The notes below the pieces were generated by a model. It was not told where the DNA came from and ran no database searches. It was given only the letters and a program-made list of their open reading frames with translations. Positions 20,626 through 39,380 of a stretch of DNA of 64,000 nt are shown here, piece after piece; position 1 is the first letter of the stretch, and each line of letters begins with the position of its first letter. The DNA comes from an uncultured Blautia sp. Lineage in GTDB: Bacteria > Bacillota > Clostridia > Lachnospirales > Lachnospiraceae. The DNA lies in assembly GCA_934373235.1 (NCBI GenBank), contig CAKROW010000008.1, positions 1,039 through 65,038 of the forward strand, given 5' to 3'. Made by a program: the position numbers and the translations under genes.

Positions 20626-22901
20626 TATTTCCTCTCAATTCCTTTTTTCACAGTCCTGTAAGCCTTCCAGACCTTTGTGCCCTCCATATCCCTGATCCGG
20701 GCCTCATAACGGATCTTTTCGGCTTCCAGCTCTTCCATCGCCCTGTGGAGATTCTCCACATCCTGTCGGAGCTTATCCACATCTGCCACAACTTCTGATG
20801 TAAGATTCTTTTCCTGTTTTCCAAGGCACTGGATCTCTGCGGAAAGAAACAGTTCTTCTGTCCCGTCCCTAAGCTCCTCTGTAACAAAATACGGGTCACT
20901 GCCTTCAAAGTAAAACAGACCCTCTCCTGCCGGCTTTCCATTGCATCCATAAACCACTTCTGTGCCATCTGCATATTTCAGGCTGTGGATACGCACAAGG
21001 CATGACTCCTCACATGGATCTATACGAAGACGTTTTACCTTACCTCTGGTCTGGATCATACCCTCAAACCGGTTTTCATTCTTTGGCAGAAACCAGGAAT
21101 CTTCCTCAGAAAAATCAGCACCTCTGTCTGCATAGATCTGTATTGCTTTCACCTCTCTGGCAAGATTCCTTACATCCAGGATCGTGCCCTGTGAAATATC
21201 CTGATACATATGGCGCATAGGCACTTTGGTTCCAAGAATAAACTGCTGGAAATTCTCTTCCATTTTTTCGAAAGCTTTCTGTTCTTCTTCTGTGATACCG
21301 GCTCTCTTATAGAAATCCAGCTCAAGAAGAGGGCATCTTGCAGTGCTTGTATAAAGATAATACTTCAACACCCTGTAGATCTGGTAATCTACAGGTACTG
21401 GAAACTCAAAACTCCACTCATAATCCAGAAGCTGCCACTCCTCTCCTGTCTTCAGAAGATTGGCACATACAGGATCAATGTCTGTCACCGGCGCACATTT
21501 AAGTCCCTCCGGAAGCTTTACATCACCAAATATCCTGCGAAAGCTGTCAGTCATTGCAAATTCCTGCTCTCCGGCAGCTTTCCTTAAGATGTCAATATAC
21601 TGGGAAAATTTTTCCCAGACCTTCTCATATTCCTTTGCAGACACCAGTCTGTCCAGCTCCTGTTCAAGGGTCTCGCCCTGCAGGTACTCAAGCCTGACGC
21701 CCTGTTCAAGCTTATCACACCGGTTCATATGGATACCGCTTCCCTGATAAAGCTTCTCAAGCTTCTCATACAGATCGTAGATCCTGCTGGTATGAGCGGA
21801 CCCTTTCCGGCTGCATGGAACCTTGATAACAGACTTCATGCCCTGGCTGTTTTCATGGATCTCTGTGCGGAGGGAATATGCGTCATCCCTCTCATTGGAA
21901 AACTTCACATATAGCGGACTGTCTTCCCACAGTTTTCCATCTTTTAAAGATGCCACGATCAGGAAAGAATTGGAAAAATCCGAATACAGGTCATTTCCGA
22001 TCAGACTGTCTGCCACCTGGATCTCATCAAAAAGCCGGAGGCGCGCCCTGTCAAAATTATAGTGGATCTCCCGCAGTTCTCCCTTCCTTGGAAGCCATCT
22101 GTCAGAATAAATGCTCATGGGGAATTTGTAATCCGGATAAGGGTAATACATCTGGTACTGGTATCCTCCTGCCCGGTCAAAGATCTCACCGATCTCCTTC
22201 CTGGAAAATGTCCGCACCCCTGTAGTATCCGGATACCCTTCCAAGCCCTCAAAGAATTTACCTACATGATCCTCTGTGCATCCTGCCCAGTATTTCAGGC
22301 CCAGGCGGTTCTCAATGGCTATGATAAGCTTGCCGTCCGGTTTCAGGAACCGGGACACCTTTTTCAGCATGTCTGTATAGGGAGTGTCTGTACCCATATA
22401 ACCCTCGGAATATTCAAAGACACCGATCAGTGTTACATAATCAAATTTTTCATCCAGACTTTTCTCGATGCTATCAAAATTTCCAACCAGGATCTCAATA
22501 TTGTCAAGATCCCGGTTACGGTTTGCATTGATAGTACTTCGCATTTTTGACAGCTCGATACAGGTGACTTTTTTGGCTTTTTTTGCCAGGACACCGGTTA
22601 CTGCCCCACAGCCGGAGCCGATCTCCAGAACAGTATCTTCCCTGGTCACAGGAAGCCAGTCTACAATATTTCCGCGGATATGTGAAAAATGATACAGCAC
22701 CGGCCAGCTTTTTCGCCGGGCGATCTCATGGTTCCACTCATCTTCCCTGTAATTTTCACTGATCTCAAGGAGTTCTTCCTCCACCTTTCCATCACTGTAC
22801 AGATCCTTTCCCGGATAAAATTCATAATCCAGTGTTACTTTTCCTATTTTTTCTTTCATAGTCTGCGCTTTCTCCAATTTCCTTCCCTGTGTTTCCGTCA
22901 A
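20625..22901 (-). CDS. WbdD-like multidomain protein: SAM methyltransferase + kinase-like domain + beta domain + C-terminal coiled coil
   Basis: VLEIGSGCGAVTGVLA (SAM motif I). Kinase/APH-like elements: VIKV, LEYLQGETL, TDIDPVCANLL, LLDYEWS. C-terminal heptad-like DVDKLRQDVENLHRAMEELEAEKIRYEARIRDMEG plus a basic tail. The start is ambiguous (TTG 22901 or ATG 22859). Confidence 0.7.
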   Translation of the reverse strand: MTETQGRKLEKAQTMKEKIGKVTLDYEFYPGKDLYSDGKVEEELLEISENYREDEWNHEIARRKSWPVLYHFSHIRGNIVDWLPVTREDTVLEIGSGCGAVTGVLAKKAKKVTCIELSKMRSTINANRNRDLDNIEILVGNFDSIEKSLDEKFDYVTLIGVFEYSEGYMGTDTPYTDMLKKVSRFLKPDGKLIIAIENRLGLKYWAGCTEDHVGKFFEGLEGYPDTTGVRTFSRKEIGEIFDRAGGYQYQMYYPYPDYKFPMSIYSDRWLPRKGELREIHYNFDRARLRLFDEIQVADSLIGNDLYSDFSNSFLIVASLKDGKLWEDSPLYVKFSNERDDAYSLRTEIHENSQGMKSVIKVPCSRKGSAHTSRIYDLYEKLEKLYQGSGIHMNRCDKLEQGVRLEYLQGETLEQELDRLVSAKEYEKVWEKFSQYIDILRKAAGEQEFAMTDSFRRIFGDVKLPEGLKCAPVTDIDPVCANLLKTGEEWQLLDYEWSFEFPVPVDYQIYRVLKYYLYTSTARCPLLELDFYKRAGITEEEQKAFEKMEENFQQFILGTKVPMRHMYQDISQGTILDVRNLAREVKAIQIYADRGADFSEEDSWFLPKNENRFEGMIQTRGKVKRLRIDPCEESCLVRIHSLKYADGTEVVYGCNGKPAGEGLFYFEGSDPYFVTEELRDGTEELFLSAEIQCLGKQEKNLTSEVVADVDKLRQDVENLHRAMEELEAEKIRYEARIRDMEGTKVWKAYRTVKKGIERK

Positions 22902-24226
22902 TTATTTTTGTCCTGATATTCCACAGTGACCCTGGAATTCATATCATAGAATCCAACTGTGTTCTTGGTTGAGATCACTGTCACATTACAGATATCATAC
23001 AGCCTGTGGAACACCTGGAAGTCTCCGTCCTGATACCCGGTGCAGCCCAAGGACAGAAGATACTCTCCCCCCTGCATATTCATCTCCTGGCGGAAGGTCA
23101 CAATAACCTCCCTGCCGTCTCCACATGGTTCAATATCTTTTTTCTCATACATGGTATTGGTTCCTGTGATCTCTGTTCCCTGTACATTCTTGAATGTAAA
23201 AGCCACAATAGGCTCCTGTACCTTCTCATGGAAACGGACTCTCACAAGAATGTCAAACACTGAATTTTTCTCTATGGTGTTGGTATAATTTCCCCTTGCA
23301 TCCCGCAGGGTAAAATCGATGATCTCGGCTTTTTTGTCACCATATTCCAGCTTCTGGGGATCTGTTTCAAAAGGTCTTGGCCATTTTCCCTCTGCCAGAC
23401 AGGAGGCGCTGTCTATCGTACCCATTGATTCAGCAGCCTCAGTCTGAGCCTGGATCACATCTGCTGCCCCTGTATCCACAGATACCTCATCGCCTCCTGC
23501 AAGAAGCTTCTTGTACCAGTCCACCATCTCCTTCGGAGCACCCTCTCCCATCTTTACACCTTTGTTAAGGAGGACTACACGGTCACAGTATTTGCTGATG
23601 CTTCCAAGGTCATGGCTTACAAACAGGATGGTCTTGCCACGTTTCTTAAATTCCTCAAATTTGCGGTAACATTTTGCCTGGAAAAATACGTCACCTACAG
23701 ACAGTGCCTCATCTACGATCAGGATCTCCGGATCGATATTGATGGCAACTGCAAAGGCCAGACGCACAAACATACCGCTGGAATATGTTTTTACCGGCTG
23801 ATGGATAAAATCACCGATATCCGCAAAATCCAGGATTGCCTGCAGTCTGGCTGTGATCTCCTCCCTTGTGAAACCGATCATGGTTCCGTTAAGGTATACA
23901 TTTTCCAGTCCGGAATACTCCATGTTAAATCCTGCACCCAGCTCCAGAAGTGCTGAGATCCTGCCATTCACCTCAAGGCTTCCGCCGGTTGGGTTCAGCA
24001 CTCCGGTGATGATCTTCAGGATGGTGGATTTTCCGGAGCCGTTGGTACCAATGATACCAACAGTCTCTCCTTTATTTACCTGAAAAGATACATCGTTAAG
24101 GGCATAATGCTCCCTGTATCTTTTCTTTTTTGACAGCCCCAGTGCCTCCTTGAGACGGTCAATGGGCTTGTCATAAAGCTTATACATCTTACTGATGTTA
24201 TTTACTGATATTGCAATATCCGACAT
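22898..24226 (-). CDS. wzt: Polysaccharide ABC exporter ATP-binding protein Wzt/TagH-type with C-terminal substrate-binding-like extension
   Basis: Walker A GTNGSGKST, signature SSGM, Walker B ILIVDE, then ~190 extra C-terminal residues (beta-rich, Wzt_C-like). Confidence 0.9.
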   Translation of the reverse strand: MSDIAISVNNISKMYKLYDKPIDRLKEALGLSKKKRYREHYALNDVSFQVNKGETVGIIGTNGSGKSTILKIITGVLNPTGGSLEVNGRISALLELGAGFNMEYSGLENVYLNGTMIGFTREEITARLQAILDFADIGDFIHQPVKTYSSGMFVRLAFAVAINIDPEILIVDEALSVGDVFFQAKCYRKFEEFKKRGKTILFVSHDLGSISKYCDRVVLLNKGVKMGEGAPKEMVDWYKKLLAGGDEVSVDTGAADVIQAQTEAAESMGTIDSASCLAEGKWPRPFETDPQKLEYGDKKAEIIDFTLRDARGNYTNTIEKNSVFDILVRVRFHEKVQEPIVAFTFKNVQGTEITGTNTMYEKKDIEPCGDGREVIVTFRQEMNMQGGEYLLSLGCTGYQDGDFQVFHRLYDICNVTVISTKNTVGFYDMNSRVTVEYQDKNN

Positions 24227-25654: not shown

Positions 25655-27013
25655 TTATTTTTCGTAATTCTTTTGTTTTATCCTCAAAGCCGCTAAAAGG
25701 CCGATGAGCAGTAATATCATGGCAGCCATGACTACCAGAAGGATAAGCCTTGTCTTCGGGATGCCCTTCACTGTATCTTTCCGGGTATCTGCAGCATCGC
25801 TTGTCTCTGTCCCTGCTTTTCTTGCATGGCTGCTGTTGTCCGAAATGGTTCTGTCTGTGAGATTGCTGCCGTTTTCATCTGTATCTGTGGTTTCTGTTGT
25901 TTCTGCGGTTCCTGTTGTTTCTGTGGTTCCTGTATTTTCCTCAGTCCCGGGCACAGGCGTCTCTGTCACTGTGATCATTCCTGATCCAACCAGATGATCA
26001 CCAAGGTAGTAATCCTCCATCTGAGGATTATTTTCCTCCGGCTTCGTGGTAAGGGTGGATATATCCATTCCGTTGGGAACTGTGACGCTTCCTCCGTTTA
26101 CCTCGGTTCTGGTAAAATTCGTATATACATATTCACTTAACGCCTTCGTGTCCATACATGAGTAGGACAGGTTCTGGGCACGCATGGTAACAATGATATA
26201 CGTAAGCCCGTTCTGCTCCACCTCTGTCACAAGGGTCTGACCTGCTGCATTGGTGTAACCGGTCTTTCCCCCTTTGCATGGCTCGTAGTAGAACTCACTC
26301 TCCGGTGCCATCATTGCATGATGATTGGAAAGATTTCTCACCTGGCTGTTCATGTTGGTAGGCTGGATATCATGCTGTCTGGTGTGCACAACGGTACTGA
26401 AGGTATCATTCTTAAGTCCTGCCTGGTAGATCAGTGCCATATCCCTGGCTGAAGAATAATTATTCTCATCCGGAAGTCCGCTGGAATTGGCAAAATGCGT
26501 GTTCTCACAGCCAAGTTCTGCTGCCTTCTGGTTCATCATATCTATAAATGCCTGTTCCGTGCCGCCAATATGCTCTGCGATCTGTGCTGCCACGTCATTG
26601 GCAGAAGAAAGGATCAGTGCATACAGGCAGTCCTCCATACTGATAATCTCCCCCACCTGTGTGCCGATATTGCTGGAATCCGCATTGACATTTCGCACAC
26701 CTGTAGCAGTAAAAGTCACCTGTTCATCCATAGCAGAGTGTTCTGCTGCCACAAGTAAAGTCATAAGCTTGGTGATGCTGGCAGGATAACGCTGAAGGTC
26801 CGCACCCTTGTCATAGAGCACCCGGCCTGTTTCATTATCCATGACGACGGCAGTGTCCGAGGTGATCGCCGGTGCTGCCGGCCATCCTGTAATCTGGTCT
26901 GTAGTTACCGTACCGGCGGTGTTCAGATCCACTGCCCCATAGGCAGACACTGCACCTGCCCCGATAAAAACACACCCAAGGATTACTGCCAGGATCTTTT
27001 TATATTTTTTCAT
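25655..27013 (-). CDS. D-alanyl-D-alanine carboxypeptidase (PBP5/DacA-type, peptidase S11), catalytic motifs intact
   Basis: SITK (PASITKLMT), SAN and KTG (GGKTGYT) are all present. Signal peptide, T/E-rich linker, C-terminal TM anchor. ATG 27013 has a GGAG RBS; the ORF extends to TTG 27028. Confidence 0.85.
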   Translation of the reverse strand: MKKYKKILAVILGCVFIGAGAVSAYGAVDLNTAGTVTTDQITGWPAAPAITSDTAVVMDNETGRVLYDKGADLQRYPASITKLMTLLVAAEHSAMDEQVTFTATGVRNVNADSSNIGTQVGEIISMEDCLYALILSSANDVAAQIAEHIGGTEQAFIDMMNQKAAELGCENTHFANSSGLPDENNYSSARDMALIYQAGLKNDTFSTVVHTRQHDIQPTNMNSQVRNLSNHHAMMAPESEFYYEPCKGGKTGYTNAAGQTLVTEVEQNGLTYIIVTMRAQNLSYSCMDTKALSEYVYTNFTRTEVNGGSVTVPNGMDISTLTTKPEENNPQMEDYYLGDHLVGSGMITVTETPVPGTEENTGTTETTGTAETTETTDTDENGSNLTDRTISDNSSHARKAGTETSDAADTRKDTVKGIPKTRLILLVVMAAMILLLIGLLAALRIKQKNYEK

Positions 27014-27028
27014 AATATAAGTCTCCAA

Positions 27029-28159
27029 TCAGAATCCGTCAAAAGATGCAACTGCGTCAACCACTCTCCTGGCATCCTCCATGTCCAGGTTATAGAACAT
27101 GGGAAGCCTTAAGAGTCTCTCACTTTCTCTGGTGGTATACACATCCTCCCCTGCAAATCTGCCAAATTTAAGGCCTGCAGGCGCAGAGTGGAGCGGCACA
27201 TAATGGAACACACTGCACACACCCTTCTCCCGTAAATATTTCAGAAGCCGGGTCCTTACCTGGATATCATGTACTTTAATATAATACATATGTGCATTAT
27301 GCTCACATTCTGCCGGCACAAAAGGCTGCTGGATCTTGCCTTCATCTGCAAGGAATTTCAGGTTCCGGTTATAAAAATCATAAATTTCCATACGCTTGGC
27401 ACTGATCTTTTTGTGCTGTTCAAGCTGTGCATAAAGATATGCCGCATTCAGCTCACTGGGCAGATAGGATGAACCGTAATCCATCCAGCGGTATTTATCC
27501 ACCTGTCCACGGAAAAACTTGCTTCTGTCTGTTCCCTTTTCCCGCAGGATCTCTGCTTTTTCCTGGTAGGCATCATCATCATAGACAATGGCGCCTCCCT
27601 CTCCCATAGTATAATTCTTAGTCTCATGGAAGCTGTAACAGCCAAAATCTCCGATGGTTCCCAGTGCTTTTCCTTTATAGTATGCATCCACTCCCTGGGC
27701 AGCATCCTCCACTACCTTAAGGTTATGTTTCCTGGCGATCGCCATAATGGTATCCATCTCACAGGCAACCCCTGCATAGTGGACCGGTACGATCACTCTG
27801 GTCTTATCTGTGATGGCCTGTTCGATCAGCTTCTCATCAATATTCATGGTATCCGGGCGGATATCCACAAACACGATCTTTGCACCTCTGAGCACAAAAG
27901 CATCCGCAGTGGACACAAATGTGTAGGATGGCATGATCACCTCATCTCCAGGCTGTACATCCGAAAGATAGGCTGCCATCTCCAGTGCATGTGTGCAGGA
28001 GGTTGTAAGCATCACGTGTCCCACATGAAAACGGTCCTGCATCCATCCGGAACATTTTTTTGTGTACTCACCGTCTCCGCAGAGCATCCCGCGGTTGACC
28101 GCATCCTGTATATATTCAAATTCCCTGCCTGTAAACGCAGGTCTGTTAAAATCTATCAT
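27029..28159 (-). CDS. DegT/WecE-class PLP-dependent dTDP-4-keto-6-deoxyhexose 4-aminotransferase
   Basis: The N-terminus MIDFNRPAFTGREFEYIQDAVNRGMLCGDGEYTKKC follows the E. coli WecE pattern as I recall it. VEDAAQG, SFHETKN (PLP lysine), GEGGA. Confidence 0.85.
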   Translation of the reverse strand: MIDFNRPAFTGREFEYIQDAVNRGMLCGDGEYTKKCSGWMQDRFHVGHVMLTTSCTHALEMAAYLSDVQPGDEVIMPSYTFVSTADAFVLRGAKIVFVDIRPDTMNIDEKLIEQAITDKTRVIVPVHYAGVACEMDTIMAIARKHNLKVVEDAAQGVDAYYKGKALGTIGDFGCYSFHETKNYTMGEGGAIVYDDDAYQEKAEILREKGTDRSKFFRGQVDKYRWMDYGSSYLPSELNAAYLYAQLEQHKKISAKRMEIYDFYNRNLKFLADEGKIQQPFVPAECEHNAHMYYIKVHDIQVRTRLLKYLREKGVCSVFHYVPLHSAPAGLKFGRFAGEDVYTTRESERLLRLPMFYNLDMEDARRVVDAVASFDGF

Positions 28160-28171
28160 CTCTTCCTCTTT

Positions 28172-29134
28172 TCAAAGTGCTTCCCATTCTTTTATGCAGG
28201 CAGCTATATATTCCATTTCTTCCCTGCCATACCTCTGGTCGCAGGGTACTGGCAGGATATTCTCTGACCACTGATATTCCAGGGTATCTGCCTTAAGGTC
28301 CCGCAGCACATTCTTCCAGTTGGTTGGTACAAAGATCTTCTTTCCTGCCAGCCATCTGCGAAGTTCGATTCCATTCCTGTGATAGTAAGGGTAAGCAAAA
28401 GGTCCCTCCGGTATCTCACCGTTAAATGGTGAACCGGAAGGCAGAAGCTCTGCAAGCAGTCTGTAATTGGCCTCTCTTTTTCGCTTTATGCCCTCATAGT
28501 CAATGGTCTTAAGCAGGTTCTCCGTAAGACGTGACATACGCCGTACTCCGCTGCTGCCAAATCCTGCCGCAGTATCCAGCATACGCTGATAATAGGTACC
28601 TGCGTCGTATTCATATCTTCCCAGCACATGGGCCATATGCTCCATGGAGTAATCCTCCGGAAGATCCATATCCGGCTGCGCATCTGTGGCCAGATATGCA
28701 CCGTCCCCCACACCGAAAAACTTCCTGCATGAGTAAATGGTATCGATTCCCTCCACCGGCCTGTCATAAAATGCCTGTGTATTGTCTACAATAATATTTC
28801 CAAATTTTTTCTTATAATAACGTATCTTATCTTCTGTGAGGCAGCCATAGTAATTCACCAGATACACGTAAGTTCCTTCTTCCGGTGCTCCCTGTGGCAG
28901 CACAGGTTCCAGCTCCTCGCTGAGATAATAAAAGATCATCTCTGTATCATTCTCCCTGCACACCTGAAACACAGATTCACAGAGAAAATAAGGCATATAT
29001 ATCTTACGGATCTGCCTTGTCCTCAAAAGGAGAAGAAAGGCCGTCCTGCCCAGATTCACCCTGTACAGATCCTCATAATATTCTCTGCCGGATGCTTCCT
29101 CCAGCTCAAGATATCCTCCGATTTCTTTCTTCAA
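28172..29134 (-). CDS. Uncharacterised protein, possibly a divergent DegT/aminotransferase-fold enzyme
   Basis: The ORF runs to GTG 29164. TTG at 29134 is preceded by AGGAGG with a 9-nt spacer. Weak DegT-like pattern: LGRTAFLLLL, IYMPYFLCESV, VDNTQAF, YSCRKFFGVGDGAYL. Confidence 0.45.
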   Translation of the reverse strand: MKKEIGGYLELEEASGREYYEDLYRVNLGRTAFLLLLRTRQIRKIYMPYFLCESVFQVCRENDTEMIFYYLSEELEPVLPQGAPEEGTYVYLVNYYGCLTEDKIRYYKKKFGNIIVDNTQAFYDRPVEGIDTIYSCRKFFGVGDGAYLATDAQPDMDLPEDYSMEHMAHVLGRYEYDAGTYYQRMLDTAAGFGSSGVRRMSRLTENLLKTIDYEGIKRKREANYRLLAELLPSGSPFNGEIPEGPFAYPYYHRNGIELRRWLAGKKIFVPTNWKNVLRDLKADTLEYQWSENILPVPCDQRYGREEMEYIAACIKEWEAL

Positions 29135-29266
29135 ATCTGATATCCTCCTGTCAGCTATTGACACTTGTTTTTTATCTTATCATTTTCAATGTCGGTTGTA
29201 AAGAGTTCACGAATAGTATATACTTGCATCGTATGAAAGTAAATTATCACGAAAGCGAGTTCAAAA

Positions 29267-30238
29267 ATGTTAGTTTCTATTGTGATCCCCTGCTATTACT
29301 CAGAAAAGTCCATACGCAAGGTAGTGGAAATGGTAATGGCGGAGTTTGACAAAAATGAGGGCTATGAATGTGAATTTGTCCTTGTAAATGATGGCTCCAC
29401 AGACAATACCTGGCCTGAGATCCAAAGGCTTGGTCAGGAATACCCCTGTGTCCACGGCATCAATCTTATGCATAATTTTGGCCAGCATAATGCCCTGATG
29501 GCATCCATGCACTATGCAAAAGGCGACTATGTCCTGGGAATGGATGACGATATGCAGACCCACCCTTCCCAGATCTTCAGACTGATACATAAGATCGAGG
29601 AAGGCTATGATCTGGTATACGGTGTCTACCCTCACAAAAAAAATTCCTGGCTTAAGAATTTTTCCAGCAAGATCAACGAAGTCACTTCCCGGATTATGCT
29701 GAACCGCCCCAGGGACATTGTATCCAGCAATTTCTGGATCATCACCAGCGCAGTACAGAAGGAAGTTGCCAAGTATACCAGCTTCAATCCCTATATTGAC
29801 GGAATCTTTTACCGTGTAACCCATAATATCGGAAATGTTCCGGTAGAACACTATCGCCGGGAATTCGGCACCTCCGGTTACACCTTACGTAAACTTGTCA
29901 ATCTGTGGCTTTGTTACTGGAACTTTTCGGTGATTCCTCTGCGGCTTTCCTTTTTCCTGGGAATCTTTTCCGGATTTGCAGGAGTTGTCATTGCACTGCT
30001 TGTGATCATCAACAAGCTGCTGCACCCGGATGTTACCATGGGATGGTCCTCCACCTTATGTGTTATTGTGATCTTTTTTGGCATCGTGCTTACAGTTCTT
30101 GGTATTGTAGGGGAATATCTGGGCAAGATCATTCTGATCCTTAACAACACGCCCCAGTATATTGTCCGTGAAACAGTCAATACACCAGATACCATAGAGG
30201 AAAAGATCAGCAAACTTGTGAGGGAGAAAGTCAATTGA
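29267..30238 (+). CDS. Polyprenyl-phosphate glycosyltransferase (GT2, GtrB/CsbB/ArnC architecture)
   Basis: N-terminal GT-A (VSIVIPCYY, VLVNDGSTD, MDDDMQ) followed by two C-terminal TM helices with the GIVGEYLGKI motif. Confidence 0.85.
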   Translation: MLVSIVIPCYYSEKSIRKVVEMVMAEFDKNEGYECEFVLVNDGSTDNTWPEIQRLGQEYPCVHGINLMHNFGQHNALMASMHYAKGDYVLGMDDDMQTHPSQIFRLIHKIEEGYDLVYGVYPHKKNSWLKNFSSKINEVTSRIMLNRPRDIVSSNFWIITSAVQKEVAKYTSFNPYIDGIFYRVTHNIGNVPVEHYRREFGTSGYTLRKLVNLWLCYWNFSVIPLRLSFFLGIFSGFAGVVIALLVIINKLLHPDVTMGWSSTLCVIVIFFGIVLTVLGIVGEYLGKIILILNNTPQYIVRETVNTPDTIEEKISKLVREKVN

Positions 30239-31473
30239 AAAAGATCATGATTCTGGGAGCCGGGATCTACCAGGTTCCCCTTATAAAAGCAGCCCAGGAT
30301 ATGGGACTTTATACCATCGTTGCCAGCATCCCCGGAGAGTATCCCGGGTTTGCCCTGGCTGATCAGGTCTGTACCATAAATACCACAGATCAGCAGGAAA
30401 TCCTTAAAGTATGCCTCCGTGAAAACATCCAGGCCATCTGCACCACCGGTACGGATGTTGCCGTTTCCACCATCGGATATGTGTGCCAGCACATGGGACT
30501 TCCGGGAATTTCCCTTTCTGCTGCCAGGAATGTCACAGACAAAGCACAGATGAAGGCAGCTTTTGAGCGTGGACATGTATCTGCCTCCCGTTTCCGTCAG
30601 GTAAATACCCTTGAGAAGGCCCGAAAAGCTGCTTCTGAGATCGGCTATCCTGTAGTCGTCAAACGTGTGGACAGCTCCGGAAGCCGCGGAATTACAGTTG
30701 TAAAGGATCCGGAATATCTGGCTGCAGCTTTTGATTCTGCACTCTCCGGTTCACGCAGGGATTATGTTCTGGTTGAGGAGAAACTTCATGGCATGGAAGT
30801 CGGTGCAGATGGCCTGATCCAGAACGGAGAAATTGTTTTCTTTGTTCCCCACGGAAAGTCCGTATATCATACAGGAACCATTGATGTTCCTGCAGGACAC
30901 AGCCTTCCATGGCAGGGTTCCCCGGTTCTTTCTGAGGAAATCCGCCGCCAGCTTAATGCCGCAGTTCAGGCACTTGGACTTGACAACTGTCCTTTTAACG
31001 CAGATCTTTTTGTAGATCCTGATACTGCCAAAGTGTGGATCATTGAGATTGGGGGCCGTACAGGCGCTACCTGCATCCCTGAGCTGATCTCCATGTATTA
31101 TGGTTTTGATTATTACGAAAAAATACTGAAAAACGCTCTTGGTGAGCCACTGTCTCTTCCCTCTGTTCCCCACGGAAGCCCCTGCCGTGCAATGCTTCTT
31201 ATGAGTCCCTTTGAAGGCAGGATCACATCTGTGGATCAGGATATCCTTCATGAGCTTACAGAACAGGGGATTACCGTCACACTGGACTATCCTGTGGGTC
31301 ATCCGGTTGAAAAAATGGAAAACGGCACCTGCCGCTTCGGCCATGTGATATTTCCGGTGCATCAGCCTGAGGAAACTGACCGGATCCTTCGTAAACTCTA
31401 CAGCTCGATCCACATTGACGAAGAGCCCCTTTCCTGGGAACATAATATAAAGCCCCATATCGGGGACGCCTGA
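30235..31473 (+). CDS. ATP-grasp family ligase
   Basis: MKKIMILGAGIYQVPLI Rossmann-like pre-ATP-grasp domain, DKAQMK..F, YPVVVKRVDSSGSRGI, LVEEKLHGMEV, IIEIGGR. The TTG start overlaps the upstream stop (TTGA 30235-30238). Confidence 0.8.
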   Translation: MKKIMILGAGIYQVPLIKAAQDMGLYTIVASIPGEYPGFALADQVCTINTTDQQEILKVCLRENIQAICTTGTDVAVSTIGYVCQHMGLPGISLSAARNVTDKAQMKAAFERGHVSASRFRQVNTLEKARKAASEIGYPVVVKRVDSSGSRGITVVKDPEYLAAAFDSALSGSRRDYVLVEEKLHGMEVGADGLIQNGEIVFFVPHGKSVYHTGTIDVPAGHSLPWQGSPVLSEEIRRQLNAAVQALGLDNCPFNADLFVDPDTAKVWIIEIGGRTGATCIPELISMYYGFDYYEKILKNALGEPLSLPSVPHGSPCRAMLLMSPFEGRITSVDQDILHELTEQGITVTLDYPVGHPVEKMENGTCRFGHVIFPVHQPEETDRILRKLYSSIHIDEEPLSWEHNIKPHIGDA

Positions 31474-31514
31474 TAACTGCTTACTTTTTCCGGATTTTTT
31501 ACAGCGGAGGAACT

Positions 31515-31865
31515 ATGTCAAAAGTCAAAGATTATATACAGCTTCATTTAAATATCCTGCTGTTCTCCCTGACAAGTGTTTTTTCCAAGCTTGCCTCAGT
31601 ACAGTATAACCGCCATGGCCTTGACAGTATCATGCTTTATGTTTTTCTTTTTCTCATGATACTGAACTGCGGGATCTATGCCATTGCGTGGCAGCAGGTC
31701 ATCAAAAAATTTTCCCTGTCCACAGCCTATGCCAACAAAAGTGTTTACCTTCTGTGGTCTCAGGTATGGGCAGTGATCATTTTTCACGAAAATCTTTCCA
31801 TACAGAACATTATCGGTATCCTGATCGTTCTGGCCGGAGTCTGGATGGTGCAGAGATATGAATAG
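31515..31865 (+). CDS. Small four-TM EamA-half/SMR-like protein, ArnE-like (putative lipid-linked sugar flippase subunit)
   Basis: 116 aa. C-terminal AYANKSVYLLWSQVWAVIIFHENLSIQNIIGILIVLAGVWMV resembles the ArnE pattern AY..S...W......HE..S......G. RBS GGAGG. Confidence 0.65.
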   Translation: MSKVKDYIQLHLNILLFSLTSVFSKLASVQYNRHGLDSIMLYVFLFLMILNCGIYAIAWQQVIKKFSLSTAYANKSVYLLWSQVWAVIIFHENLSIQNIIGILIVLAGVWMVQRYE

Positions 31866-32196
31866 AACATTTATGCTGATCATGCTTTGTGGAACCTTTT
31901 TTTCCGCAGTTTCCCAGATCCTTCTGAAACAGAGTGCCAACAAAACCTACAAAAACGCCCTTCTGGAATATCTTAACTGGAGGGTTATCCTTGCATATGG
32001 GATCTTTTTTGCAGTACTTCTTCTTAACACTCTGTGCTACACAAAAGTTGATATGCGTTTCGGCCCGGTCATAGACACCGCCACTTATGTATTTGTGCTG
32101 ATCTTTTCCCGCCTGATCCTGAAAGAAAAGATCACCCGCGGAAAGATCATCGGCAACCTTATCATTATTGCCGGGATCATTGTCTACACCTTATAA
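31858..32196 (+). CDS. Small four-TM EamA-half/SMR-like protein, ArnF-like partner subunit
   Basis: 112 aa. Its start overlaps the upstream stop (ATGAATAG, 31858-31865). Hydrophobic throughout, with a conserved C-terminal ..KEKIT..KIIGNLIIIAGIIV. Confidence 0.65.
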   Translation: MNRTFMLIMLCGTFFSAVSQILLKQSANKTYKNALLEYLNWRVILAYGIFFAVLLLNTLCYTKVDMRFGPVIDTATYVFVLIFSRLILKEKITRGKIIGNLIIIAGIIVYTL

Positions 32197-32291: not shown

Positions 32292-33821
32292 TTACCGGTT
32301 AGTACATACACCATTCTTGTCAAAAATGTAGGTTACACCATTTTCTTTTTTGGTACAGTTTTTGTACATGATTCCTGTGTAGCTGTCAAAACGGTACGGT
32401 TTTCCCTTGATCCGCAGCCAGCTTCTGCACATCTTTCCATTAGATCTGAAGTAGTAGGTATGATCCTCTCCATTTCCGGACCATGTATAGAATACAGATT
32501 TTACACGGACACCGTCATTTCCGAAATAGTATACATCGTCATTATCATCCATGTATCTTACATTTTTCATCATATATCCGTATTTGTTCTGGAAATAATA
32601 GACTTTGGAACCGATTCTCGTCATTCCTCTGGCTCCGTATCCGTTGGATTTCATGTAATATTTACGGTTATTCCAGGTTATCCACTTGTTGGTCACTCTG
32701 GCTCCGTTCTTGTCCACATAAAACACATTTCTATTGTAACGGATGAGCTGGCTCTTATATAAACCCTTGGTGGCGTTGATATAATAATACCTGCTTCCAA
32801 CCTTCACCCATCCCGTCTTCTTCACGCCGCTTGCATAGTAAAAAGTCTTTCCGTTCTCCTTGACCCATCCATTTTTTATATTGTTCTTGGTATCCGGAGT
32901 CCTGGACGCCTTATATGTGGCAAGTGCCTTTGTTCTCGGGGTGATGATCTTGGTGTAATCCACATAACCAAAATCTACATCTACATCTGAATAACTGGAA
33001 ATTCCACTGATCAGACCCTTGGTGGAATTTAAATATCCGCCACCATCACCGTCAGTTGCCTGCCAGATCGTATATTTGTACTCATTTCTGTCAGGTGCAA
33101 GGATATCATCACCGTAACGTGCAAGCCATACATCCAGACCTTTCAGTTTGCTCCAGGCCACCTTCTCATCATACCAATTGGTGTTGCAGTAAACCATGGG
33201 ATAATATCCGGCTTTTTTCACCTCATTACAAAATGCCAGTGCAAGGTCTGCTATCCTGGATGGGGAAAGTTCACCCATTTTACTGTACTCCAGGTCGTAG
33301 ACAACAGGGTAGGAAACCTTGTAACCGTTCATTTTTTTGATGGCAAACTGTGCTTCCTTCAGTGCCTCCGTTGTGGTGGTTGCAAGACTGTATACATAGG
33401 TTCCTACCGGAACGCCTGCCGCTGCTGCCTGTTTCATGTTATAGGCATACTGTCTGTCCATATGCTCCAGGCCATAGGAGATCCTTACAAAAGCAAAATC
33501 CACATTTGATTTCTTAACTTTTTTCCAGTCAATGGTATCCTGCCATTCAGAAACATCAATACCTCTTGTGATGGCTCCGTTGATCTTTTCACCGCTTCCA
33601 TTATAGCAGACTCCATTGATCTTCTTCCATGCCTTGGAGCTTGTAGCCTTTCCGCTGGCCTTACCGGAAATCTTTCCGCTTCTTACCTTTTCTTCCTCGG
33701 CAACTGTATCCCGGCGGTCAACTCCGCCACCGCCCATTGCCATAACTGTGGTTCCCATTGCACCTATGCCCAGCACTGCCGCCATAATGCCGGATACCAG
33801 CCATACTTTCCACTTTTTCAT
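32292..33821 (-). CDS. GH25 muramidase (lysozyme) with C-terminal cell-wall-binding repeats
   Basis: Signal peptide. GIDVSEWQDTIDWKKV..DFAFVRISYG and VVYDLEY GH25 motifs. The C-terminal half has ~20-aa aromatic repeats (GWVKENGKTFYY, GWVKVGSRYYYI, ..). Confidence 0.9.
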   Translation of the reverse strand: MKKWKVWLVSGIMAAVLGIGAMGTTVMAMGGGGVDRRDTVAEEEKVRSGKISGKASGKATSSKAWKKINGVCYNGSGEKINGAITRGIDVSEWQDTIDWKKVKKSNVDFAFVRISYGLEHMDRQYAYNMKQAAAAGVPVGTYVYSLATTTTEALKEAQFAIKKMNGYKVSYPVVYDLEYSKMGELSPSRIADLALAFCNEVKKAGYYPMVYCNTNWYDEKVAWSKLKGLDVWLARYGDDILAPDRNEYKYTIWQATDGDGGGYLNSTKGLISGISSYSDVDVDFGYVDYTKIITPRTKALATYKASRTPDTKNNIKNGWVKENGKTFYYASGVKKTGWVKVGSRYYYINATKGLYKSQLIRYNRNVFYVDKNGARVTNKWITWNNRKYYMKSNGYGARGMTRIGSKVYYFQNKYGYMMKNVRYMDDNDDVYYFGNDGVRVKSVFYTWSGNGEDHTYYFRSNGKMCRSWLRIKGKPYRFDSYTGIMYKNCTKKENGVTYIFDKNGVCTNR

Positions 33822-33992: not shown

Positions 33993-36884
33993 TTAATTAT
34001 AAGCCGGATCTGTAGGATCGTAGTTACCGATTCCAACCAGTGGCACGATTGGCTTACGTCCTAACGGTCCCTTGAATGTTTCTCTGGAATCATAGTTTCC
34101 GTCAAAGATACGGATGGTTGCTCCGTTACAGTTATCATATACCCATTTTGCATCTGCTACGCAGACACGGATACATCCATGAGATGCCGGATTACCAAGC
34201 TTCAGATACTCTGCTGTGGAAAGATTATGATTATTCGGCTCTGCACATGCAATAGAGTGAACAAAGATTCCGCCCTGACCACATCCGTCTACATGAGTTC
34301 CATACTGTCCCCAGGATGGTCCCATCAGCGGCTGCCATCTTGCACTTCTGCTAAGACTGTATGTACCTGTCCAGGTCGGTGTTCCCGGAAGACCTACAGA
34401 TACACGGATGGTCTTAACAGGGATCTGTCTGGATGAATCTGTGTAAACTGTCATAACTCCGTTAACCCTGTCAACCTCTACATAGTACGGTCCACCGTAA
34501 ATGGAAGTGATATCATTACGTCTGTATCCGTTCTTGTCAAAGTAATACAGCTTGCCATCGATCCACATACTGGTATTTACCAGATATTTGCCCTGGTAGA
34601 GATATTTAACCTCATTGTTGTAATCATTGACGATCACCCACTCAGATTTTGTGATAAATCTTCCCTGGCTGTCAAGATATCCGTTTGCACCGTTTCTGGT
34701 GGCTGCCTGATTGGTCTGTACTACGTAATTATCCAGATAATACCAGTAGCTTCCAACCTTCTGCCAGCCTCTCTGACGAAGTACCCCGTTCTTGGATGCA
34801 AAATACCAGTTGTTATTATAACGTATCAGTGTATTCTTATAGATCCAGCCTCTTCTGGATGCTTCAGAAGATGTTGCAAAGAAATATTTCTTTCCGTCGA
34901 TGGTTGTGATACCGCTTGCAGATTTACCTTTTGCATCAAAATAATATTTATTGTTGACCCAGGTGTTCATGTAGTGGTTGCCGTTCTTGTTAAAGTAATA
35001 CCAGCCACAGTATACCCCTGATGTTGTGTATATCTTCTGCCAGCCGTATCTCTCCTCAACCTTACCCGGGGTACTTCCAAAGTAATACAGTCTGTTGGAT
35101 GCACCTTTGCAGCGGTGCCATCCGTTTGTCCAGGGTGCCCTTCTTCCGTTGGAACCAAAGTAGTATCTCTCCCCTGTCCTGCTGTTCCTGACCATCTTGC
35201 TCTTGCGGACATGGCCCTTGGCATCTGTTGCATAATAGTTGCCGTTCTCGGTCTTGGCCATTGTGTTTTTGAGGATATAGCCGTTTGCATCGATCAGGAA
35301 GGAATATTTCTTGGATTTGATCCTTGAAATATAAACACCATGTTTCAGGATCTGTCCGAACTTGGATGCTCTTGGATTACAATAGATCCATCTGGTTCCC
35401 TTGTTGCCCTGTACGCTTGTCCATCCGCCGTAGAACATCTTACCCGGAATATCATTGTCATCTGATGCCGGCTGATAGTAGTACTGATAGCTTCCAGAAC
35501 CTTTCTTTACGGTCTTGATACCTACATAAGGAACTCCATTCTTATCAAGATTATAGAAAGCACCATCGATCTTTTTATTTTTTCCGATAATGCTCTTGCC
35601 TACCTTCTCAAGATCCGGAATGGAAATGTAATAACCTTTCATTCCATAATAGCGGAAATTGCTTCCTGTCCAGAGCCAGTAGCCTCTCTTCTGCTGTCCC
35701 AGATCAGAAGTCCATGGTGTAATATTCTGTTCCTCACAGCCTGCATATAATTTAGCTGTTGAACTTTCAGCCATGTAATATTCCCGTGTGGTCTTGCCTG
35801 AATAGCCCAGGTTTCCAGGTTCCCTTGTGATACGTCCGGTAACCATGATACCTGACTCATCAAAAAGATAATATCCTGTATGGCCGTTGGTATTTACCTT
35901 GATAAGACCATCCTTGGCTGTGTAATACTTATCTGCTACTGTTCCTGCAGATGCCATGGACGGAACATCAGTGTCATCTACCTGAGTGTCTGCTGCTGCC
36001 TGCTGTGCATCAACAAGGCCCAGATTCTCTGCTTCTGCTGCATTTCCGGAATCCAACTGAATATCTGTGCTGTCTGCCCCGGTATCTCCTGACTGGATAT
36101 TTGTGCTGTCTGCCCCGGTATCTCCTGACTGGATATTTGTGCTGTCTGCCCCGGCATCTCCTGACTGGATATCTGCCGTATCAGCGGACTGTACCGCTGC
36201 TTTGGCTGAGGATGTTTTGGTCTTTGCCTTTTTCAGCATATATTTGCCGCTTACAGGTTTCCAGTCTGTTATCTTCGCAATAACAACTCCGTTTTTGTCC
36301 TTTGCCGCACCAGCCTCTGCCTCCGCTGCATCTCCCGGATCAACCACTTTATCTGTTGATGCCTTCGCAGCCTGAGGTGCGGTCAGATCCTCCGGTTCCC
36401 CTGCTGAAAACGAATCTTCCGGTGTTTCTGTAACCTGTGGTACTTCTGTGACCTGTGGTACTTCTGTGATATCCGGAGTTTCTGTGATATCTGGTGTCTC
36501 TGTAACCTCCGGTGCCTCTGTGATCTCAGGTGTCTCTGTAACCTCCGGTGTCTCTGTAACCTCCGGCGTCTCTGTAACTGCCGGATCTTCTGTCACTGCC
36601 GGATCTTCTGTTTCTGCCGGATCTTCTGTTTCTGCCGGATCTTCTGTTTCTACCGGATTTTCTGTTTCTGCCGGTGTAACTTCCGGAATGCTCTCAGTGG
36701 GATCAGATGCTGTATCTGACTGCTGATCTTCCTGAACAGCATCGCCAAATCCATCGTCCTCGCTACCTGCCGCTTCTGTCTGCACCTGCTCTGCGCTGTC
36801 GCTGAATACGGAAGCTCCGGCTTCCACTGTGCCGCCAACACATAATGTAAGGCTGAGCAGCATCGCCACAACTCTTCTCTTCAC
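33993..36884 (-). CDS. L,D-transpeptidase (YkuD domain) with cell-wall-binding repeats and N-terminal tandem-repeat acidic region
   Basis: C-terminal YkuD catalytic motif SHGCIRV. Central array of aromatic wall-binding repeats (YYF...G). Signal peptide. The N-terminal ~300 aa are built from 6-aa and 12-aa tandem repeats. Confidence 0.9.
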   Translation of the reverse strand: MKRRVVAMLLSLTLCVGGTVEAGASVFSDSAEQVQTEAAGSEDDGFGDAVQEDQQSDTASDPTESIPEVTPAETENPVETEDPAETEDPAETEDPAVTEDPAVTETPEVTETPEVTETPEITEAPEVTETPDITETPDITEVPQVTEVPQVTETPEDSFSAGEPEDLTAPQAAKASTDKVVDPGDAAEAEAGAAKDKNGVVIAKITDWKPVSGKYMLKKAKTKTSSAKAAVQSADTADIQSGDAGADSTNIQSGDTGADSTNIQSGDTGADSTDIQLDSGNAAEAENLGLVDAQQAAADTQVDDTDVPSMASAGTVADKYYTAKDGLIKVNTNGHTGYYLFDESGIMVTGRITREPGNLGYSGKTTREYYMAESSTAKLYAGCEEQNITPWTSDLGQQKRGYWLWTGSNFRYYGMKGYYISIPDLEKVGKSIIGKNKKIDGAFYNLDKNGVPYVGIKTVKKGSGSYQYYYQPASDDNDIPGKMFYGGWTSVQGNKGTRWIYCNPRASKFGQILKHGVYISRIKSKKYSFLIDANGYILKNTMAKTENGNYYATDAKGHVRKSKMVRNSRTGERYYFGSNGRRAPWTNGWHRCKGASNRLYYFGSTPGKVEERYGWQKIYTTSGVYCGWYYFNKNGNHYMNTWVNNKYYFDAKGKSASGITTIDGKKYFFATSSEASRRGWIYKNTLIRYNNNWYFASKNGVLRQRGWQKVGSYWYYLDNYVVQTNQAATRNGANGYLDSQGRFITKSEWVIVNDYNNEVKYLYQGKYLVNTSMWIDGKLYYFDKNGYRRNDITSIYGGPYYVEVDRVNGVMTVYTDSSRQIPVKTIRVSVGLPGTPTWTGTYSLSRSARWQPLMGPSWGQYGTHVDGCGQGGIFVHSIACAEPNNHNLSTAEYLKLGNPASHGCIRVCVADAKWVYDNCNGATIRIFDGNYDSRETFKGPLGRKPIVPLVGIGNYDPTDPAYN
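36058..36175. repeat. In-frame 36-nt tandem repeat (3 copies plus a partial copy) inside the L,D-transpeptidase gene
   Basis: Units at 36058-36093, 36094-36129 and 36130-36165 differ by 1-3 nt. They encode the 12-aa unit SGDTGADSTNIQ. Confidence 0.9.
36421..36680. repeat. In-frame 18-nt periodic repeat array inside the L,D-transpeptidase gene
   Basis: About 14 degenerate 18-nt units (e.g. ggatcttctgtttctgcc x3, tgtctctgtaacctccgg x3). They encode ETEDPA and (V/I)TETPE-type hexapeptides. Confidence 0.85.
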
Positions 36885-38509: not shown

Positions 38510-39380
38510 GCTTCACTCTCCCTTTCAGCAGATGCCGAAGCTTACTGTTATCAACTACTTTCTTGTTCTGAGCATTGATCAGGATCTCCCGGAGCTGCTT
38601 GGATGTCAGTCCCCTGGAAAGCGCCCCATCCTGCGCTACAGATACCTGTCCGGTCTCCTCTGAAACAATGATCGTCAGGGAATCTGTGGCCTCACTGATT
38701 CCCACTCCTGCTCTGTGTCTGGTTCCAAGCTGCTTGCTCAGTTCCATATTGTCTGAAAGAGGAAGATAACAGGTTGCTGCCACGATACGGTTTCCTCTCA
38801 CGATGACCGCACCATCATGCAGCGGTGTATTGTGTTCAAAAATATTAATAAGAAGCTGGCTTGATAAAATTCCATCCACATTGATACCGGTCCGCACATA
38901 TTCATCCAGACGGATTTCCTTCTCAATGACGATCAGGGCTCCGGTCTTCACCTCACCCATATCAAAACATGCCTTCACCAGCTCATTGATAGTCTTGTCA
39001 TTAAACCGCTCCTGCACTTCCTTGCCCGAATCAAAAGGAATAATAGTAGAAACGATCTTCTTCTGTCCCAGTTGTTCCAGAGCCTTGCGAAGCTCGGGCT
39101 GGAAAATTACGATCACGCCGATCACCAGCACATTGGCAAGATTGCGGACAATCCACAGGATCGTATTCATTTTGAAAATATATGCGACCAGGATAAAAGC
39201 AAGGACTACCAGGATGCCTTTCAGAAGAGTATATGCACGCGTAAACTTGATCCACGCCATAAACTGATACACAAAAAAGGAAATCAGTGCGATCTCGATC
39301 ACATCGATCACACCCAGTCCCGGCAGCGTAAGCTTGCCCAGATATCCTGTGAGATTTGTCAGTATGTTCTCCATAAGCAC
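38493..39380 (-). CDS. cdaA: Diadenylate cyclase CdaA (c-di-AMP synthase)
   Basis: Three N-terminal TM helices and DAC-domain motifs GALIVIE, TPLHDGAVIV, GTRHRAG, SEETG. Confidence 0.92.
   Translation of the reverse strand: MLMENILTNLTGYLGKLTLPGLGVIDVIEIALISFFVYQFMAWIKFTRAYTLLKGILVVLAFILVAYIFKMNTILWIVRNLANVLVIGVIVIFQPELRKALEQLGQKKIVSTIIPFDSGKEVQERFNDKTINELVKACFDMGEVKTGALIVIEKEIRLDEYVRTGINVDGILSSQLLINIFEHNTPLHDGAVIVRGNRIVAATCYLPLSDNMELSKQLGTRHRAGVGISEATDSLTIIVSEETGQVSVAQDGALSRGLTSKQLREILINAQNKKVVDNSKLRHLLKGRVKHEEKF

Follow-up and report, generated by a model that had tools for sequence, protein, structure and literature searches.

We analysed a 64,000-nucleotide window (the whole stretch of DNA considered here) of contig CAKROW010000008.1 from an uncultured Blautia sp., in which a small gene cassette diverges from a minus-strand wall-glycan operon. 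The cassette consists of conserved, uncharacterised genes that most likely load a modified, probably amino, sugar on a lipid carrier, flip it, and decorate a cell-wall polysaccharide with it. The genes and features concerned are as follows (positions within the window; GT2, glycosyltransferase family 2; GT-A and GT-C, glycosyltransferase folds; TM, transmembrane; PLP, pyridoxal phosphate; dTDP, thymidine diphosphate; ORF, open reading frame; aa, amino acids).

13131-15641, minus strand: YfhO-type GT-C, candidate extracytoplasmic transferase for the lipid-linked donor (836 aa).
27029-28159, minus strand: WecE-type dTDP-4-keto-6-deoxyhexose 4-aminotransferase, PLP-dependent (376 aa).
28172-29164, minus strand: divergent DegT-fold, probably PLP-dependent protein (330 aa, GTG-initiated ORF; fold match with an AlphaFold2 model).
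29165-29266: divergent intergenic region of 102 bp separating the plus-strand cassette from the glycan operon on the minus strand.
29267-30238, plus strand: polyprenyl-phosphate glycosyltransferase (GT2; GT-A domain and two-helix TM hairpin), ArnC/GtrB/PgfS-like (323 aa).
30235-31473, plus strand: ATP-grasp carboxylate-amine ligase of L-amino-acid-ligase/PurT-like type (412 aa, TTG start).
31515-31865, plus strand: four-TM EamA-half protein, putative flippase subunit 1, predicted N-in (116 aa).
31858-32196, plus strand: four-TM EamA-half protein, putative flippase subunit 2, predicted N-out (112 aa).

An initial annotation of this DNA had named six of these genes, and the ORF list and profile searches bore out the coordinates and domains of all six, including the location of the YfhO gene in the facing operon. 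The two overlaps it described were also found exactly as claimed: the GT2 stop and the TTG start of the ATP-grasp gene share TTGA at 30235-30238, and the EamA subunit genes overlap by 8 nt (ATGAATAG at 31858-31865), both as read from the sequence. What it overlooked was a seventh gene, that of the 330-aa protein, between WecE and GT2; its translation probably starts some 10 codons after the GTG. Sigma-70-like hexamer pairs lie in the divergent intergenic region, one on the plus strand (29196-29224) and two on the minus strand (29202-29174 and 29243-29215), in a number not above that in shuffled sequences, and a promoter and terminator scan of the cassette likewise returned counts no higher than in shuffled sequence.

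We investigated conservation by seeking relatives of the ATP-grasp protein in one genome per species, which turned them up in 417 species-level genomes, and analysing the best 80 loci (designated by L numbers), with locus counts made by tblastn, distances taken within 10 kb of the cassette, and 49 loci fully flanked. These loci were mostly from Lachnospiraceae (Blautia, Choladousia, Marvinbryantia, Fusicatenibacter and Muricoprocola), the remainder being from Mogibacterium/Anaerovoracaceae and a few Oscillospiraceae. The GT2 gene stood immediately 5' of the ATP-grasp gene on the same strand in 72 of 77 loci, and both EamA-half genes immediately 3' of it in 67 of 77. A PLP enzyme adjoined the cassette in 61 of 73 loci, as a PALP-family protein just upstream (50/73) or a DegT-like protein just upstream (11/73); PALP and the 330-aa DegT-like protein were never found in one locus. 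Unbiased clustering of all locus ORFs ranked the same families first, with the next-ranked families far rarer (WecE 17 loci, a PdaA-like deacetylase 16, RmlB 14). The four-gene order is thus kept in most of the 80 related genomes, and is therefore no chance juxtaposition. In one related locus (L085; ATP-grasp protein 58% identical) the order of the window is reproduced exactly from the terminator methyltransferase to cdaA (methyltransferase, wzt, wzm, rmlC, S11, wecE, DegT-like, cassette, GH25, YkuD, cdaA), with the polyprenyl-phosphate GT2 and the EamA pair in the same order as here; the compared stretch ends before the expected position of yfhO.

The constant unit is accordingly a PLP enzyme with GT2, ATP-grasp protein and EamA pair, while the sugar aminotransferase and the GT-C are variable or unlinked. 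WecE adjoined the cassette in 17 of 80 loci, in both orientations, and in several of these no ABC-transporter genes were nearby (e.g. L074), which speaks for a direct link within this subset. Of the fully flanked loci, WecE lay within 10 kb in 13/49, YfhO in 7/49, a DUF2298-like protein in 7/49, and either GT-C candidate in 13/49. The Arn-like amino-sugar and YfhO pathway put forward in the initial annotation is therefore plausible for a subset of loci that includes the window, not as a general scheme, and the conserved unit is not the ArnB-ArnC-ArnE/F-ArnT set but the one described above. As to the co-occurrence that it proposed to check, the EamA pair lies by the ATP-grasp gene in 67/77 loci and the GT2 in 72/77, and YfhO is within 10 kb in only seven of the 49.

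Judged from its sequence, the GT2 is a polyprenyl-phosphate glycosyltransferase and a full-length homologue of ArnC and GtrB. It matched Pfam Glycos_transf_2 at 97 bits and carries two C-terminal hydrophobic helices (residues ~225-248 and ~264-282), and its best solved relatives in the PDB were three ArnC structures (136, 123 and 122 bits) followed by GtrB (108 bits), with alignments spanning the full length including the TM hairpin (residues 3-306 for ArnC, 3-302 for GtrB). Its DDDMQ motif matches the DADLQ motif quoted for ArnC, GtrB and DPMS (PMC12690121), so that the GT-A domain, the DxDxQ motif and the two C-terminal TM helices fit the polyprenyl-phosphate GT2 type, in agreement with the GtrB/ArnC/CsbB architecture originally assigned to it. 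The best NCBIfam models were PgfS (165 bits, cut-off 500) and ArnC (NF007986, 143 bits, cut-off 529), both below equivalog level, and by score the protein is no ArnC orthologue. It is the only GT2 of GtrB/ArnC architecture in the locus; we considered the 318-aa and 308-aa GT2s as a second GtrB-type enzyme to pair with YfhO and rejected them, as both are without the TM hairpin.

The ATP-grasp protein scored above the cut-offs of Pfam CPSase_L_D2, GARS_A, ATP-grasp_4 and others, and weakly against LAL_C2 (23.5 bits, cut-off 29.4). None of its NCBIfam matches reached equivalog level: PRK02186, an ATP-grasp/argininosuccinate-lyase subfamily, gave 84 bits, far below its cut-off, PurT 74 against 339 and 70 against 502, and BacD 54 against 850. 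The best solved relative was 4DIM (E 1.7e-55, residues 2-374), an Anaerococcus prevotii protein deposited as phosphoribosylglycinamide synthetase, followed in the PDB ranking by BacD, other L-amino-acid ligases, PurT and CPSase. A set of 15 homologues shares many invariant residues, among them K143, E181, E188, D257, E271 and R275; Clostridia metagenomes contain thousands of relatives (50-60% identity), all unnamed, many of them with LAL_C2. The protein thus looks like a carboxylate-amine ligase, by resemblance only to L-amino-acid ligases and PurT. One homologue on a short contig, P0059, is an apparent fusion of the GT2 with the ATP-grasp protein that retains both GT2 TM helices, which would place the ligase on the cytoplasmic side. 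Domain annotation revealed no acetyl- or formyltransferase in the locus of the window, and the ATP-grasp protein is therefore the only candidate N-acylating enzyme there. The literature library searched yielded no system that joins ATP-grasp enzymes with GtrB, CsbB, YfhO, ArnC, EamA or (rhamnan-type) wall polysaccharides, consistent with the earlier view that this gene combination was not known to be characterised; papers on Klebsiella CfmP and on lipocone proteins were considered and set aside as not relevant to the cassette.

Both EamA subunits exceeded the Pfam EamA cut-off of 28.2 bits (29.4 for subunit 1 and 35.0 for subunit 2). The top NCBIfam models of subunit 1 were ArnF (28.6 bits, cut-off 99) and ArnE (27.2 bits, cut-off 92), short of orthologue level, and within its family ArnE was matched by 25/25 members and ArnF by 24/25, all weakly. 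Subunit 2 reached 16.4 bits with ArnE, and its family matched generic EamA/SMR models, with ArnE found for only 6/27 members; the ArnE-like resemblance once noted for the first of the two proteins is thus real but weak, does not extend to the second, and makes neither an ArnE or ArnF orthologue. Lysine plus arginine counts favour the odd loops of subunit 1 (6 vs 1), a bias shared by 25/25 family members that predicts an N-in topology, whereas they favour the even loops in 26/27 members of the subunit 2 family, predicting the opposite, N-out. Such opposite charge bias is the pattern of an antiparallel heterodimer in paired SMR transporters. The predicted topologies are compatible with an antiparallel heterodimer and fit ArnE/ArnF-like paired half transporters beside a polyprenyl-phosphate GT2; the charge bias agrees with the ArnE/F-like heterodimer proposed at first. 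The two families align with each other over the last helix (TM4) only, and a PDB sequence search with subunit 1 gave no match. Because the pair is locked to GT2 and ATP-grasp across genomes, these proteins are no stray exporters. On a near-identical contig of the Joint Genome Institute (L086, 99% identity), the public gene call omits subunit 1 and places a 95-aa antisense ORF at 9006-9293, so that automated annotation hides the pair.

The WecE protein matched Pfam DegT_DnrJ_EryC1 (301 bits) and passed the equivalog thresholds of NCBIfam NF008687 (627 bits, cut-off 375) and TIGR02379 (616 bits, cut-off 434.85) with residues 1-373 aligned, which corroborates its original assignment to the WecE-class aminotransferases. 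It carries the lysine motif SFHETKNYTMGEGG. The two models bear different product names, the configuration at C4 being galacto (Fuc4N) or gluco (Qui4N). The neighbouring 330-aa protein had no Pfam or NCBIfam match, and its PDB sequence search returned noise only; it has more than 2000 homologues, none with a Pfam domain on record except one fusion protein. An AlphaFold2 model built with 26 homologues as input (pLDDT, a local confidence score, 86.9; predicted template-modelling score 0.86) was matched by Foldseek to DesV, WlaRG, WbpE, ArnB and PseC (E ~1e-11, template-modelling score ~0.6). D127 (in IIVDNTQAF; compare EDAAQ of WecE) and K148 (in SCRKFFGVGDGA; compare SFHETKNYTMGEGG of WecE) are invariant in the family, and on manual reading appear to stand at the places of the PLP-binding Asp and Lys of the DegT motifs. 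The protein is therefore probably a very divergent, PLP-dependent enzyme of DegT fold, because of the Foldseek matches to its model together with the invariant D127 and K148. One homologue, P0223, which lies on one short contig, looks like a fusion of the DegT-like protein with an ATP-grasp N-domain.

The upstream PLP enzyme found in 54 of the 80 loci (e.g. L001, 8063-9034) is a PALP protein of the 1-aminocyclopropane-1-carboxylate (ACC) deaminase/D-cysteine-desulfhydrase branch with a GGNK lysine motif; its best match was the D-cysteate sulfo-lyase CuyA, at 148 bits and below cut-off.

The YfhO protein matched Pfam PF09586 at 192 bits (cut-off 28.5) and has about 12 or more hydrophobic segments; its only NCBIfam matches, PgfM2 and PgfM1, were weak and far below the cut-offs of 1500 and 1400. 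It is the only GT-C in the locus. With one GtrB-type GT2 and one GT-C present, a pairing of GT2 and YfhO is reasonable, by elimination only. The minus-strand operon around it is an ABC-transporter-type wall-glycan locus. Its products include several GT2s, two-domain ones among them, together with an initiating transferase (Bac_transf), an LCP ligase, Wzm, RmlC and a large methyltransferase encoded beside a Wzt with a Wzt_C domain; RmlA and RmlB, unlike RmlC, are absent from the window. Loci of Mogibacterium type have, close to the cassette, a recurrent protein of ~700 aa and ~20 TM helices with a faint DUF2298 match (L002, 13139-15229, minus strand, and nine more), a candidate for an unrecognised GT-C.

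The sequences show which domains the proteins carry, how the proteins are built and their genes coupled, and that the four-gene core with its PLP enzyme is conserved across genomes. From this we infer a working scheme in which the cassette is the cytoplasmic and flipping half of a three-component transmembrane glycosylation system with an added ligation step; we favour it tentatively, at slightly less than even confidence. WecE would aminate dTDP-4-keto-6-deoxyglucose to a dTDP-4-amino-4,6-dideoxyhexose, and the ArnC/GtrB-like GT2 would move this sugar to undecaprenyl phosphate at the inner membrane face. The ATP-grasp enzyme would link the 4-amino group of the sugar through an amide to a small carboxylate; family resemblance makes an amino acid the most likely partner, and the adjacent PLP enzyme (here the DegT-like protein) may make or tailor it. 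Ligation could either precede or follow loading on the lipid. Flipping of the lipid-linked sugar would fall to an antiparallel heterodimer of the two unlike four-TM EamA-half proteins. Outside the cell, YfhO would attach the sugar as a side group to the wall polysaccharide that is exported by Wzm/Wzt and anchored by LCP. The same conditional applies to the identity of the sugar and its acyl group, to what the ligase does and when, to flipping by the EamA pair, and to the roles of YfhO as transferase and of the polymer as acceptor.

An N-acylation step is plausible because ArnC takes only an N-formylated amino-sugar donor (PMC12690121). Ligation is plausible as well, on the precedent of C. jejuni, in which the GT2-containing Cj1438 is an ATP-dependent amidoligase that is fed by the PLP enzymes Cj1436/Cj1437 and works after glycosyl transfer (PMC11800397). 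Load-flip-transfer systems are established for Gram-positive wall polymers: these multi-component transmembrane glycosylation systems combine CsbB/GtlA/GacI with GtcA/GtrA or Wzx and with YfhO/GtlB/GacL, a further case being CsdAB-CflA of L. lactis (PMC8035078). In them, a wall polymer made separately receives its decoration from a membrane-anchored GT-A synthase of polyprenyl-phosphate sugars that works with a small flippase and the GT-C YfhO (PMC8035078). Likewise, a polyprenyl-phosphate GT-A, a flippase candidate and a GT-C are all present in the locus of the window; a GT-C candidate lies near the cassette in only 13/49 related loci. The known systems add glucose, galactose or N-acetylglucosamine through GtrA- or Wzx-type flippases (PMC8035078), whereas here an EamA-half heterodimer is the flippase candidate, and an ATP-grasp ligase and PLP enzyme(s) are built into the operon.

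The cassette resembles the Arn pathway (ArnB, ArnA formyltransferase, ArnC, ArnD, ArnE/ArnF and ArnT) in its DegT-class sugar 4-aminotransferase, its ArnC-like polyprenyl-phosphate GT2, its GT-C transferase, a pair of unlike four-TM EamA/SMR-type half transporters whose first member best matches ArnE/ArnF, and a plausible N-acylation step corresponding to the formylated donor that ArnC needs. It differs in following a dTDP-6-deoxyhexose (WecE-type) route instead of that of UDP-4-amino-4-deoxy-arabinose (UDP-Ara4N), in having an ATP-grasp ligase in place of a folate-dependent formyltransferase and a YfhO-type GT-C in place of ArnT, in the absence of ArnD from the window, and in its presumed acceptor, a wall polysaccharide of a Gram-positive-type organism rather than lipid A; moreover, no cassette protein reaches Arn equivalog cut-offs, and most related cassettes are without WecE. 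The Citrobacter youngae O1/O2 pentofuranose system (ORF15/ORF14/ORF12) similarly has a four-TM EmrE/ArnE-like protein proposed as an undecaprenyl-phosphate-monosaccharide flippase outside Arn, but it has a single small protein, a donor derived from phosphoribosyl pyrophosphate, no ligase and a Gram-negative host (PMC11127046). The Pgf system of S. mutans (PgfS, PgfM1, PgfE and PgfM2) supplies the best NCBIfam matches of both the GT2 (PgfS) and YfhO (PgfM2, PgfM1), yet is without ATP-grasp protein, EamA pair and aminotransferase and acts on proteins. ArnE/EmrE-like flippase candidates outside Arn are thus already known; what would be new here is ATP-grasp ligation and PLP chemistry within a familiar load-flip-transfer logic.

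Several points weigh against the scheme that we favour. WecE was not within 10 kb in about three quarters of the related loci, and the same holds for a GT-C; an amine made by WecE and a nearby YfhO are thus no general requirement of the cassette, and the amino-6-deoxyhexose and YfhO steps are plausible for the window, L085, L030, L042 and L048 without defining the cassette. The usual PLP partner is ACC-deaminase/D-cysteine-desulfhydrase-like, which suggests alpha,beta-elimination chemistry and offers no obvious amino-acid supply. The ArnE/ArnF and ArnC/PgfS scores are far under the family cut-offs, the WecE product might be used by a main-chain GT2 instead, and the P0059 and P0223 fusions could be frameshift artefacts, since each rests on a single short contig. 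The substrates of the ligase, the GT2 and the DegT-like protein are, moreover, not revealed by sequence.

Four other explanations were weighed against it. We give a minority share of our confidence to a different acceptor, namely lipoteichoic acid, surface proteins (by Pgf-like O-glycosylation) or peptidoglycan, with the adjacency to the polymer locus being synteny only. The best NCBIfam matches, PgfS for the GT2 and PgfM2/PgfM1 for YfhO, belong to S. mutans protein glycosylation, most genomes have the cassette outside any polysaccharide locus (e.g. L001), and peptidoglycan enzymes are often nearby (S11 peptidases, YkuD, GH25, amidase, PdaA-like deacetylase). However, the Pgf scores are far under their cut-offs, the YfhO gene of the window is embedded among polymer glycosyltransferase genes, and the cassette again abuts rml and wzm/wzt genes in L004, L030, L042, L048 and L060.

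We consider unlikely a reversed ligase as in the C. jejuni capsule, in which the GT2 would load a uronic acid, the ATP-grasp enzyme would amidate its C6 carboxylate and WecE would serve the polymer backbone; the small amine, an amino alcohol phosphate or amino acid, would come from the adjacent PLP enzyme, DegT-like here and PALP elsewhere. Such a ligase would account for a non-WecE PLP enzyme being the most constant accessory (61/73), which WecE is not, and for the 330-aa protein keeping, in its predicted model, the fold, Lys and Asp of sugar aminotransferases. In C. jejuni, Cj1436 and Cj1437 make ethanolamine phosphate and serinol phosphate for the amidoligase domain of Cj1438, which is active only after glycosyl transfer (PMC11800397). 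The HS:2 capsule system (Cj1435-Cj1438) also shares with the cassette a genetic or physical linkage of PLP enzyme(s), GT2 and ATP-dependent amide ligase, with ligation after glycosyl transfer in C. jejuni (PMC11800397). Yet the Cj1438 GT2 is a polymerising cytoplasmic enzyme and that of the cassette a polyprenyl-phosphate type with TM hairpin; the C. jejuni system is without flippase or GT-C and has its carboxylate on the sugar (glucuronic acid), and the two ligases are likened here by role. Against amidation of a uronic acid, furthermore, a UDP-glucose-dehydrogenase-like gene was found in only 1 of the 80 loci and not in the window, no phosphatase partner of the haloacid dehalogenase (HAD) type was seen, WecE adjoins the cassette in 17 loci of which some are without polymer genes, and the ligase did not match PF14305, the TupA-like family, whose predicted role is to attach amino acids to surface polysaccharides.

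A strict Arn analogue appears improbable. Here the ATP-grasp enzyme would be a PurT-like N-acylase using formate or another short acid, and a deacylase would restore the amine, leaving a cationic decoration; the transient block of the 4-amino group would pull an unfavourable transamination forward and let the GT2 act. PurT is indeed among the best NCBIfam models of the ligase (74 and 70 bits), ArnC uses the N-formylated donor only (PMC12690121), and in 16/80 loci the EamA pair is succeeded by a gene of the polysaccharide deacetylase family. But this deacetylase is PdaA-like, and its membrane anchor at the N-terminus goes with a predicted extracytoplasmic location; none is present in the window or in L085, and resemblance to LAL_C2 and BacD, like the obligatory PLP partner, speaks for a larger acyl group. 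That the genes are unrelated neighbours, with the EamA proteins exporting an ATP-grasp/PLP metabolite such as a dipeptide-like compound and the GT2 being an ordinary glycan glycosyltransferase, is very unlikely. Small molecules are the usual cargo of EamA/SMR exporters, generic models of which are matched by subunit 2, and L-amino-acid-ligase relatives such as BacD yield secreted dipeptide antibiotics; but the GT2 is a full-length ArnC/GtrB homologue and, with its TM hairpin, stays closest to the ligase (72/77), to which it is coupled in translation and, in P0059, fused, so that the conservation and fusion data make mere neighbourhood unlikely.

We also observed choline-binding-type repeat proteins within 10 kb of the cassette in 13/80 loci, comprising 12 of the 17 with WecE and 1 of the 63 without it (Fisher 1.2e-9, not corrected for phylogeny). 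Cassettes near repeat proteins included those of L030, L038, L042, L047, L048, L057, L060, L066, L072, L074, L080 and L082; loci with both WecE and repeat proteins are spread over three or more separate branches in the tree of the ligase, with differing gene arrangements. A literature search on choline-binding repeats in Lachnospiraceae brought nothing of use. The repeat proteins were of GH25 muramidase, YkuD L,D-transpeptidase and amidase types. In the window, Pfam choline-binding repeats were scored in the GH25 protein (32292-33821, minus strand), and a loose repeat pattern only was found in the 963-aa YkuD protein (33993-36884, minus strand). The latter begins with short acidic repeats of PETE/TEDPAE-like type, followed by YY-x-G-type repeats that resemble wall-binding ones. 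Because WecE-bearing cassettes and repeat proteins co-occur, we raise, as a speculative and doubtful extension, that an aminoacylated and still cationic 4-amino-6-deoxyhexose side group on the wall polysaccharide might be the anchoring ligand of the neighbouring repeat proteins. If true, Lachnospiraceae would have in this group an equivalent of the phosphocholine that pneumococcal teichoic acid carries, as well as a means of setting surface charge without Dlt.

Lachnospiraceae such as Blautia and Fusicatenibacter are prominent gut bacteria whose wall glycans are largely uncharacterised. Hundreds of species-level genomes carry the cassette. It would bring ATP-dependent ligation and PLP chemistry into surface-polymer decoration, and it gives a defined gene context to three families without assigned function, namely the 4DIM-type ATP-grasp proteins, a DegT-fold family of more than 2000 members without a Pfam model, and the EamA-half pair. 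If the product is an aminoacyl amino sugar, the cassette would give Gram-positive-type cells a novel route for placing amines on the wall, with possible effects on cationic-peptide resistance, on phage and lectin recognition, on immune recognition and on wall-protein anchoring.

Several further features were observed around the cassette. In 16/80 loci, all of one Lachnospiraceae clade, a PdaA-like polysaccharide deacetylase with an N-terminal membrane anchor lies directly 3' of the EamA pair (L001, 12098-13018); it may be a mere neighbour or an extracytoplasmic deacylase of the decoration, and we rejected it as an ArnD analogue in view of its anchor, its probable extracytoplasmic location and its being possibly just a neighbour. 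About 8 kb upstream, an MBOAT protein with a ~380-aa partner lacking a Pfam match was found in a Parablautia locus (L001, 1838-4438) and a Mogibacterium locus (L002, 1646-4427), and could be an acylation system for the same polymer.

Within the glycan locus of the window, a 758-aa protein with a methyltransferase domain (20625-22901, minus strand) adjoins the Wzt with its Wzt_C carbohydrate-binding domain (22898-24226, minus strand). This layout is that of a chain-terminating modification coupled to export, as for WbdD/Wzt of E. coli O9a. Two genes of the S11 D-Ala-D-Ala-carboxypeptidase family also lie inside the locus. One (25655-27028, minus strand) encodes a Thr/Glu-rich linker and a C-terminal TM helix, and in L004, L030, L042, L048 and L085 it is likewise flanked by wecE on one side and rml genes on the other (rmlC; in L004, rmlA-rmlC); the other (11390-13036, plus strand) is on the strand opposite to the enclosing minus-strand operon. 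Just downstream of the wall-protein genes, cdaA-ybbR (37205-39380, minus strand) encodes a cyclic di-AMP synthase, and this synteny is kept in L085 and L086.

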